64,000 bases of DNA from NCBI RefSeq assembly GCF_009931435.1, contig NZ_CP043414.1. One strand, 5' to 3'. Position numbers: made by a program. This document shows positions 30,276 through 33,200 of this stretch, in pieces; position 1 is the first letter of the stretch, and each line of letters starts with the position of its first letter. Source of the stretch: Escherichia coli. Its GTDB lineage: Bacteria; Pseudomonadota; Gammaproteobacteria; Enterobacterales; Enterobacteriaceae.

Positions 30276-33200
30276 TAGGGTAATATTAAATCGGAACATT
30301 TACATCGCGGAATGTAAAATTTAAATAAAAAGGACTCTTCCATGAGCCAAAATTCCTGAAATCTTAAGGGTAAGATAAAAGGTCTTAATCAGAATGACAC
30401 GTTATTATTAATAAATAAAGCTATTCTTTCATTGCTGTGTTTTTCTTTACAAAAGTAATCCTTGCTATGGGTGGTTAATCATGCGTTAATGGTGTTCTGG
30501 TTTGTTACAAATTTATCTGAAGCAGTCATTGTTATAATTTTATTATTTGTACCTCTTGAGATTTCCTTGTTGGTTTTTCTCTCTGATATTTTTTTTCGGA
30601 CCATTCTGCCCAAGGGCTAATTTCTTCAAAAGGTAATAATTATGTCTAACAAAATGACTGGTTTAGTGAAATGGTTTAACCCTGAAAAAGGTTTTGGTTT
30701 CATCACGCCGAAAGATGGCAGCAAAGATGTGTTTGTCCATTTCTCAGCAATTCAGAGCAACGATTTCAAAACATTAACTGAGAATCAGGAAGTTGAATTT
30801 GGTATTGAGAACGGACCTAAAGGCCCTGCCGCTGTTCATGTAGTGGCGCTTTGAGGTAGACAATATTACAAACCATATTCACTTTAGATGCCCGTGTTGT
30901 CATGGTTCCCAGTATAGAACATCATCTTTTGATGTTTCTGACATGAATCCTTTCGGGGCAAAATGTATCTTTTGTAAATCAATGATGATTACATTTGATA
31001 ATATTTCACAATACTTAAATGCCAGCCGTCTGTCGTTGGATTTAAAAAAGTGAAAATGAAGGCTCCTTCGGGAGCTTTTTTGCTTGGTATCTATTCGATG
31101 GATACTCACATACTACGGTAACATCATGAAAAAAATCATAGTTTTTTTTAACTCTGAACCAGCAGTGGTAGTGCCAGCGATGACTGGAGTTAACACCATC
31201 ATGCGTGAATATCCAAATGGCGAAAAAACACACCTTACTGTAATGGCCGCAGGGTTTCCATCTCTGACCGGAGATCATAAAGTCATTTATGTAGCCGCGG
31301 ATCGACATGTTACTTCAGAAGAAATTCTGGAAGCAGCAATAAGGCTCTTGAGTTGATTTGATGCTATTGTATTGATAATTCAGGAAAATTCTCTTTGTCT
31401 GTTTGTGTAAAATTTAGACTATCGTATGTTGATTATTGCGATGTTTCATCTTATCTTTTACACGTTTGCACCATATAATCGACTTACTGTGTAACTGGAA
31501 AGTCATAACAGACTAAAAGAGGAAATGATGAATATTGAAAACTTAAAAACAAAAGCAGAAGCAGATATTTCTGAATATATAACAAAAAAAATTATTGAAC
31601 TTAAGAAAAAGACCGGGAAAGAAGTTACCAGTATTCAGTTTACCGCACGGGAAAAAATGACGGGTCTTGAAAGCTATGATGTCAAGATTAATTTAATCTG
31701 ATGTATTCAATAATAAAATTTATCCATAAACCTCGTTTTTACGGGGTTTTGTTATATTTGAATGGTTCCGAATATCTAAATCACAATTGTTGATGGTTTT
31801 TATTAAACCAATGCAGTCCGGCTCAGGAGTGAGAGAAGCCGGACGTTATGGTTTAGCGTGGTAAGATCTGTGTAGTTTTCTGGATGCTTTCAGTAAATAG
31901 TAATGAGTTATCAAAGGCATAGTAATATCTTTGGTGTTCCTGGATATTTGTAACCCATCGGAAAACTCCTGCTTTAGCAAGATTTTCCCTGTATTGTTGA
32001 AATGTGATTTCTTTTGATTTCAACTTATTATAGGAGGTCTCTATAAGATGTTTGTTTCTGGAGAATTTAACATTTACAACCTTTTTGAGTCCTTTTACTA
32101 ACACTATGTTGTCGTTTTCTAACACAATGTGAATATTATCTGTGGCTAAATAGTAAATATAAAGTGAGATATTGTGACGTTTTAGCTCAGAATAAAATAA
32201 TTCACAGTTTAAATCTTTACGTACTTGATCGAATATTTCTTTAAAAATGGCAGCCTGAGCCATTGGTAAACCTTCCATGTGATACGATGGCGCGTAGTTT
32301 GCATTATCGTGTTTATTGTTTCAATCTGGTCTGACCTCTTTGTGTTTTGTTGATGATTTATGTCAAATATTAAGCCTGTTTTTAATGAATAGTGTTGATT
32401 GCGTAACAAAATTGAGCCTTGCTGGCATCCAGGAGGGATATGCAACCGACAGATGTATGTAAGGTCGATGTACTCAAACTTTCATACTTTTCCTCTTTTA
32501 TGCAGTAAGATTTGAAGTAATATTTTAACCGCTAGATGACGAGCAAACGCATGGAGCGACAAAATGAATAAAGAACAATCTGCTGATGAACTCTCGTTGG
32601 ATCTGATTCGTGTAAAAAATATGCTTAATAGCACCATTTCTATGAGTTACCCGGATGTTGTAATTGCATGTATAGAACATCAGGTGTCTCTGGAAGCATT
32701 CAGGGCAATTGAGGCAGCGTTGGTGAAGCACGATAAGAATTCGAAGGATTATTCCCTGGTGGTTGACTGAGCACCATAACTGCTAATCATTCAAACTATT
32801 TCACCTGTGACAGAGTCAATATCGCATTCTGTCACTGTCAGGCTAATACAGAGCTGCAATTCAACTACTGCAATGTCCTCGTAATTAGGTGAATTTACAA
32901 TATCGTCCTGTTCGGATGCCGGCTGCATTGCTGAAGATGAGGCATTTATGGTTCGCATATTTTCCCCTCATGCTCGTCAGTCCTGTGCGTAGGAAGAAAC
33001 AGGACACTCACACTAATTTGTGTGGGCATGCTGTGATGTCCTTCTGAATTATTCCTATGCCATTATGTAAAGCGCTGTATCAGATGCTCGTCACGGCTGT
33101 CAGGCTGTCAGGCTGTCGGGTCCTCCCGGTGGGGGCCCCTGCCACGGGGCGGGAGCGTCGCGGAAAAAGGCTAGTTTTTGCATTTCCATGGCGGCGGCAG

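Follow-up and report, generated by a model that had tools for sequence, protein, structure and literature searches.

The window analysed here is a 64,000-nt stretch of an Escherichia coli genome (contig NZ_CP043414.1), and all coordinates refer to the whole window and to its + strand unless stated otherwise. The coding sequence (CDS) of cspI, encoding 70 aa, lies at 30642–30854 and ends with a TGA stop at 30852–30854, as placed by the open reading frame (ORF) list and by the RefSeq annotation of 99.9% identical loci. Ten nucleotides past this stop, and in the +1 frame relative to cspI, an ATT codon at 30865–30867 begins a CDS of 62 codons plus TGA (30865–31053, 189 nt) for a YmcF-like cold-shock small protein. 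This CDS is ynfQ (b4724 in K-12), an intact prophage copy of the ymcF family. We hold that ynfQ is an intact gene initiated at ATT 30865, and put the probability of this reading at roughly 85%.

The ynfQ reading frame and its annotation

Translation of the window places the opening of the ynfQ frame behind an in-frame TAG at 30841–30843. The codons from there to Cys9 are TGG CGC TTT GAG GTA GAC AAT ATT ACA AAC CAT ATT CAC TTT AGA, and none of them is ATG, GTG or TTG. For this reason, a mechanical ORF list offers in this frame only a 36-aa ORF (30943–31053) that starts at an internal ATG (30943–30945, Met27), a codon that is not conserved as a start. A Shine-Dalgarno (SD)-like GAGGT, read from the sequence, lies at 30853–30857, where it overlaps the cspI TGA and precedes the ATT by 7 nt.

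A sequence-only reading of the window had described a start-less frame, lacking ATG, GTG and TTG before its first Cys pair, in which a Met precedes just the last 36 codons; the codon reading from the TAG agrees, and the sole Met that could open the frame is the ATG at 30943. The CxxC...CxxC ribbon that it had seen is also present, in the form of a first metal knuckle C9-P-C11-C12 (30889–30900), with C9 and C12 as the likely ligands, and a second knuckle C34-I-F-C37 (30964–30975), in which I35, F36 and C37 are invariant and C34 nearly so. The strong terminator said to follow the frame corresponds to a terminator-like hairpin at 31058–31082, with a UUCG loop and a U-run, whose RNA fold has −14.9 kcal/mol and a z of −2.71. 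The limits given to the frame, 30857–31050, need correction at both ends: the first is one base out of frame, since codons begin at 30856 and 30859, and the second is the end of the last sense codon, which leaves out the stop at 31051–31053.

Megablast of window 30600–31400 against complete E. coli genomes found the cspI-ynfQ locus in 2146 of 5426 genomes. The gene order in the matches is cspI, ynfQ or ymcF ("cold shock small protein YmcF", WP_071524604.1), ynfR, ynfN and gnsB. Two genomes annotated by the Prokaryotic Genome Annotation Pipeline (PGAP) carry a 189-nt CDS that corresponds to window 30865–31053 and begins 10 nt past cspI. In K-12 MG1655 the matching CDS is ynfQ (b4724), located in the cryptic prophage Qin and with ATT as its first codon, and the annotation of phage Tritos has a ynfQ CDS of the same 189-nt length that also begins with this ATT. 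The window and K-12 are identical over 30857–31060 and 98.5% identical over the surrounding 6.3 kb; the window therefore holds the Qin-like prophage of another strain, not that of K-12.

The K-12 and RefSeq annotations already contain ynfQ with the length given above and with ATT as first codon, so the finding is known. The detection of a conserved-looking start-less frame from the sequence, unaided, was sound, but it rediscovers an annotated gene. EcoGene and EcoCyc presumably note both the ATT start and the induction by cold shock. The gene name itself calls for care, as the "YnfQ" of VanOrsdel 2018 (PMC6001520) is a different small ORF of 37 aa at 1632890, apparently now named ynfT.

The protein matches PF23641 (YmcF-like) end to end (residues 1–62 of 62) with 111.8 bits against a cut-off of 27, and 132 homologues were collected, mostly of 62 aa. 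It contains the YmcF-like core IHFRCPxCHGSQYRTSxFDVxxxNPxGAKCIFCK and all of the invariant columns of the family, namely F7, C9, P10, C12, G14, S15, Q16, R18, S20, D23, P29, G31, A32, K33, I35, F36, C37, K38 and M41. With the junction identical in 1575 E. coli records and the protein family conserved across Enterobacteriaceae, the ynfQ frame is far beyond chance.

The cspI-ynfQ-ynfR-ynfN-gnsB module (window 30480–31720) is also found in the lambdoid phages Tritos, 2H10, mEp460, HannyBb and PhiR42_1, at 94–99.9% identity. In phage 2H10 (NC_049950.1, 45040–45310) the ynfQ homologue is intact with an ATT start, yet it is unannotated in the RefSeq record. Over 30600–31400 the window differs from its best E. 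coli matches solely at position 30824, where it has C and the two top-scoring loci have T; the change is synonymous (GGC/GGT) in cspI codon 61.

Comparative evidence for the ATT start

A census of start codons was taken over 82 loci from more than 15 enterobacterial genera, of which 80 represent one genome per species and the other two are K-12 ymcF and the window. At the codon homologous to 30865–30867, 42 loci have ATT, 34 have ATG and 3 have ATC, and the remaining 3 have a shifted ATG, either one codon later or three codons earlier than the ynfQ ATT. That ATG falls at exactly ynfQ codon 1 in many genera identifies this codon as the initiation site of the family. At least 17 of the ATT loci have no canonical start anywhere from the in-frame stop to Cys9; at the Kosakonia-type loci just GGA TTT AGA separates the in-frame TAA from the ATT. 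The three ATC codons, each 10 nt past a csp stop, occur in Salmonella enterica subsp. diarizonae, S. enterica subsp. arizonae and Siccibacter colletis, and as a candidate start ATC would be an even rarer annotated start codon.

In a nucleotide alignment of 20 junctions, conservation with codon periodicity starts at the ATT. The ATT is separated from T(A/G)AGG by 8 nt that vary and tolerate an indel, and T(A/G)AGG itself is kept at the SD position across the csp-coupled loci. ynfQ combines several marks of a gene initiated at AUU: an ATT at the 5′ end of a conserved ORF in which no canonical start could encode the conserved N-terminus, an SD at functional spacing, and orthologues with ATG at the homologous codon. 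The strength of the SD was tried as a feature to distinguish ATT from ATG loci and proved uninformative, with mean SD:anti-SD duplexes of −5.35 kcal/mol at ATT loci and −5.99 kcal/mol at ATG loci, a small difference.

The sequence-only reading had left two explanations for the missing start, a decayed gene or translation from an unusual start. The latter is supported by the ATT in the K-12 and PGAP annotations, by the ATG at this codon in 34 of the 82 loci and by the SD 7 nt upstream. In the former, an ancestral ATG would have mutated to ATT and left either an untranslated remnant or translation of the last 36 codons only. The ATT is indeed one mutation away from the ATG carried by 34 homologous loci, the locus is inside a cryptic prophage, and standard ORF finding yields 36 aa only, with no gene annotated in phage 2H10. 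Yet ATT or ATC is kept in 45 loci of many genera, including Escherichia, Citrobacter, Salmonella, Kosakonia, Trabulsiella, Yokenella, Siccibacter, Pluralibacter and others; the chromosomal paralogue ymcF likewise starts at ATT, and the ynfQ frame has no frameshifts or stops. Among complete E. coli records, 1575 match the 61-nt cspI/ynfQ junction at 100% identity, and a junction with ATG put in place of the ATT finds no identical record.

Decay is also at odds with the pattern of substitution. The ratio of nonsynonymous to synonymous differences (pN/pS) is 0.106 for codons 5–26, which lie upstream of Met27, at a near-saturated synonymous divergence (pS 0.81), and 0.109 for codons 27–41. By this comparison codons 5–26 are under purifying selection that is indistinguishable from that on codons 27–41, and 10 of the 19 invariant residues of the family lie upstream of Met27. 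As for a short product, the 36-aa form would have to be the conserved protein, and the alignment of homologues found the opposite. Met27 is present in 1 of the 82 loci, the others having K, R, S, Q, G, A or N, and it is unique to the allele of the window; the common allele of E. coli and phages has Arg at this position (AGG in phage 2H10). The 36-aa form is refuted by this distribution. It would also keep one of the two CxxC knuckles and, missing the N-terminal one, could not make the metal site. On these grounds we consider decay of the gene very improbable.

In principle an intact protein could start at another non-canonical codon of this frame. The second ATT (codon 5, 30877) is one example and would yield 58 aa. 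Ile5 is more than 90% conserved, and its codon in the window, at 30877, is again ATT. This is set against a CTC at codon 5 in K-12 ymcF and in other Escherichia loci, an SD that is 19 nt upstream and too distant, and the ATG of the free-standing homologues, which aligns with codon 1 and not with codon 5. There is little chance that initiation takes place at codon 5 or at a similar codon, and ATT 30865 is retained as the start of ynfQ.

The YnfQ protein

The two CxxC knuckles of YnfQ, C9xxC12 and C34xxC37, are about 20 residues apart and are predicted to sit on a small beta structure in the pattern of a zinc ribbon. An AlphaFold2 model built from 33 sequences (predicted local distance difference test score 76) has strands at residues 17–19 and 32–34 and a helix at 44–59. 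The protein thus probably folds, as judged by sequence and model, as a four-Cys ribbon with C9/C12 and C34/C37 forming a putative Zn site, followed by the helix. C9, P10 and C12 are invariant, and C11 is swapped in distant members of the family (CPKC, CPRC, CPSC, CPAC and similar). Because His13 is more than 90% conserved, a Cys/His site or an iron site is also conceivable. A 2026 review (PMC13348028) gives a rubredoxin-like model of YnfQ with Fe.

The segment CPCCHGSQY (30889–30915) resembles box II of the Rieske [2Fe-2S] proteins, CPCHGSQY in PetC of cytochrome b6f, with sub-significant PDB profile matches at E 0.05–0.8. The resemblance is probably a convergence on a short motif.

An exhaustive profile search of 1.84 billion representatives returned 42 matches, all of them small stand-alone proteins except two spurious repeat proteins, and thus no domain fusion among the 42 that could serve as a clue to function. 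The named homologues are almost all from enterobacterial genera, a statement drawn from the homologue and locus sets and not from the exhaustive profile search. Our best guess at the function of YnfQ, made with low confidence, is that of a ribbon stabilised by metal whose target in cold acclimation would be RNA or a partner associated with RNA or the ribosome.

Start codon and csp adjacency

The type of start codon is associated with the position of the gene. A csp gene ends 9–10 nt upstream in 39 of the 45 ATT/ATC loci versus 1 of the 37 ATG loci, and the other 36 ATG loci are free-standing (Fisher p = 7e-16, a value that ignores the kinship of the loci). Both arrangements of the ymcF family are found 3.5 kb apart in one genome, that of Citrobacter braakii ATCC 51113 (NZ_NAEW01000001.1), where one copy has ATT 10 nt behind a csp gene and the other has ATG with the nearest csp 434 nt upstream. 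The co-existence of the two forms in C. braakii indicates that the start-codon type tracks the context and not the host.

By direct alignment, the free-standing ATG copies of Enterobacter, Leclercia and RIT714 have a csp-like promoter and leader (CATGCGTTAATGG..., TAAAGCAGTTCTCAT) right before the gene, and such a promoter and leader is not clear before the free-standing Klebsiella copies. The Rfam cspA element was not detected upstream of the free-standing ATG copies, since the model spans the csp CDS. We have not seen this clean division, with ATT in the csp-coupled genes and ATG in those that stand free, stated elsewhere. It is a modest advance.

Two Pseudescherichia-like loci, L015 and L035, have an ATT start with no csp gene upstream. 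They carry instead an 8-codon mini-ORF, ATG AAA AAA GGA TAC TAT TAT TAC TAA, and the stop of this mini-ORF overlaps the first codons of the ymcF-family gene; at L031 the ATG is absent. The mini-ORF may take the place of csp in coupling, or its presence may be due to chance.

Another explanation, in which no start codon is needed, is a CspI-YnfQ fusion produced by a prfB-type programmed +1 frameshift at CUU UGA G of cspI. The CTT TGA at 30849–30854 is the slippery codon and stop of prfB, ynfQ is in the +1 frame, and CTT T(G/A)A recurs in several loci. The slippery site is not conserved, though, for the last csp codon varies among the coupled loci (CTT, CTC, CTG, CGC, GTA, CAC), and an SD-like stimulator 3 nt upstream of the CUU is lacking. 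In seven Kosakonia-type loci with a 9-nt gap, the csp gene and the ymcF-family gene are in one frame with a TAA between them. Unlike coding sequence, the spacer from the stop to the ATT varies among loci and tolerates an indel. Moreover, 36 of the 37 ATG loci are free-standing homologues beginning with ATG, and in 34 loci this ATG is at ynfQ codon 1. A frameshifted fusion is thus scarcely credible as the source of YnfQ, and separate initiation at ATT 30865 is the better account of the locus.

Cold-shock transcript and neighbouring genes

A cspA-type cold-shock mRNA element, consisting of the thermoregulator in the 5′ untranslated region and the cspI CDS, was matched by Rfam RF01766 at 30496–30881 (113.8 bits against a gathering threshold of 78, E 2e-29, full model 1–428). 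This match puts ynfQ on the cspI cold-shock mRNA. In published transcriptomes the two genes are co-regulated, and co-induction of ynfQ with cspI and ynfN has been reported (PMC11228462). A second and stronger match to the cspA thermoregulator (158.8 bits), at 27593–27985, covers cspB and its leader, so that the window contains two cold-shock csp units of the Qin-like prophage. There is no ymcF-like gene after cspB.

The next small gene of the module is ynfR (31056–31121 in the RefSeq annotation, 21 aa), whose ORF of 21 codons starts 3 nt past the ynfQ stop. The hairpin and U-run right after the ynfQ stop are inside the first 9 codons of ynfR. As YnfR-SPA, the protein with a sequential peptide affinity tag, is strongly induced by cold shock (PMC6001520), the hairpin at 31058–31082 must let transcription pass or terminate it with partial efficiency only, or else translation of ynfR may interact with termination.

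Further downstream, ynfN is annotated by PGAP as 76 aa from the ATG at 31126 (31126–31356), and in K-12 as the last 51 codons only, from 31201. Matches found by tblastn cover residues 1–75 in Citrobacter, Trabulsiella, Yokenella, Raoultella and others, which favours the longer form. It is thus the longer ynfN that seems to be conserved as a protein, and K-12 probably has the start annotated too far downstream.

Proposed coupling of initiation to csp translation

Our study suggests a way in which a weak start codon could function at this place. Most of the ribosomes that initiate at the AUU would come directly from termination at the cspI UGA, 10 nt upstream, where the GAGGU overlapping the cspI stop would hold them. 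Initiation at the AUU (30865), read as formylmethionine, gives the 62-aa protein MTNHIHFRCPCC...LDLKK. Initiation at AUU has been put at 1–2% of that at AUG (10.1101/063800) and, in another study, at 6–8 times lower than AUG (PMC3592434). The amount of YnfQ produced in cold shock would consequently be a small and fixed share of the very high CspI output, and YnfQ synthesis would respond to initiation factor 3 (IF3) as that of infC does. From the arrangement of the loci, we consider it somewhat better than an even chance that AUU initiation is coupled to translation of the csp gene.

A further step would be to regard the AUU as a selected device and not as a defect that is tolerated, where AUU or AUC is kept 9–10 nt behind a csp cistron and AUG is used when the gene stands alone behind a csp-like leader, with gating by csp-terminating ribosomes and discrimination by IF3. 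This proposal is tentative, and we think it more doubtful than the coupling itself. A variant in which a hairpin masking the SD is opened by ribosomes finishing cspI was considered and rejected: the minimum free energy structure pairs GAGGU with GGACCU of cspI with a z of only −0.67, and RNAalifold predicts 0 pairs.

Several points weigh against the picture drawn above. The coupling is a correlation across related genomes that are phylogenetically non-independent, and six ATT loci have no adjacent csp gene. A conserved RNA structure masking the SD was not found by RNAalifold on the 20 junctions. IF3 increases in cold shock (PMC6511846), and AUU would be disfavoured by this increase. In the literature we found no N-terminal peptide, initiation-profiling peak or start-codon mutant for YnfQ, and for the ATT start or the function of ynfQ and ymcF the primary literature that was found amounts to gene lists; as no paper found mentions the ATT start, it rests on annotation and comparative evidence. 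Concerning the protein, Foldseek of the YnfQ model against the PDB gave nothing at E<=0.001 (best E 0.4), and a PDB profile search gave nothing significant (best E 0.05). The weak top Foldseek matches are all zinc ribbons (the MqsA N-terminus, TFIIE-alpha, L37ae/L43e and ZifS), and the sub-significant profile matches are to short motifs in the UvrA zinc finger and Rieske box II.

E. coli has very few natural start codons of a non-canonical kind, and a gene such as ynfQ is missed or cut short by gene finders that accept only ATG, GTG and TTG, as illustrated by the 36 aa of the mechanical list and the lack of a gene in the phage 2H10 RefSeq record. What the comparison adds is that the ATT is of ancient origin, that it is fixed in E. 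coli, and that it goes with the csp-coupled arrangement. The pattern of csp coupling suggests a testable reason for the persistence of a weak start on an mRNA that ranks among the most heavily translated in cold-shocked cells. If the AUU were indeed a selected device, ynfQ and ymcF could serve as natural reporters of initiation fidelity in cold acclimation.

Comparison with known systems

The gene in the window is the same as ynfQ (b4724) of the K-12 Qin prophage, with the identical 189-nt CDS and ATT, the same neighbours in the order cspI-ynfQ-ynfR-ynfN-gnsB, and no difference within the gene. Its paralogue is ymcF (b4723), which is about 65% identical to ynfQ, also has 62 codons, and starts with an ATT 10 nt past the stop of cspG. 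At ymcF a TAAGG overlaps the cspG stop, and gnsA lies downstream as gnsB does for ynfQ. ymcF differs in being chromosomal, in the last Leu codon (CTC) and stop (TAA) of cspG, and in having ymcE in place of ynfR and ynfN.

Another small protein of the Qin prophage was thought by the sequence-only reading to be paralogous in pattern, the product of a gene at window 28333–28503 on the − strand. This gene is ynfU (b4776), and the likeness holds as far as its two CxxC/CPxC knuckles go (Weaver 2019 preprint). ynfU differs from ynfQ in its family (PF23499/NF038384), in its strand, in starting at an ordinary ATG and in having no coupling to a csp gene. YnfQ and YnfU gave no BLASTP alignment even at E<=100, and YnfQ has no match to PF23499 or NF038384. 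Homology of the two proteins was accordingly rejected, and the true paralogue is ymcF.

The AUU start is shared with infC, which encodes IF3, and with pcnB, and the proteins are unrelated to YnfQ. In infC the AUU is located just past the stop of the upstream thrS (UAA GGU AUU) and is used by a mixture of reinitiation and de novo initiation (PMC3592434). The distance from stop to AUU is 3 nt in infC and 10 nt in ynfQ, and autoregulation dependent on IF3 is established for infC, whereas IF3 dependence is a proposal for ynfQ. infC and pcnB have been described as the sole confirmed non-canonical starts in E. coli (10.1101/063800); ynfQ and ymcF would become the third and fourth AUU-start genes of E. 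coli if the AUU is a selected device.

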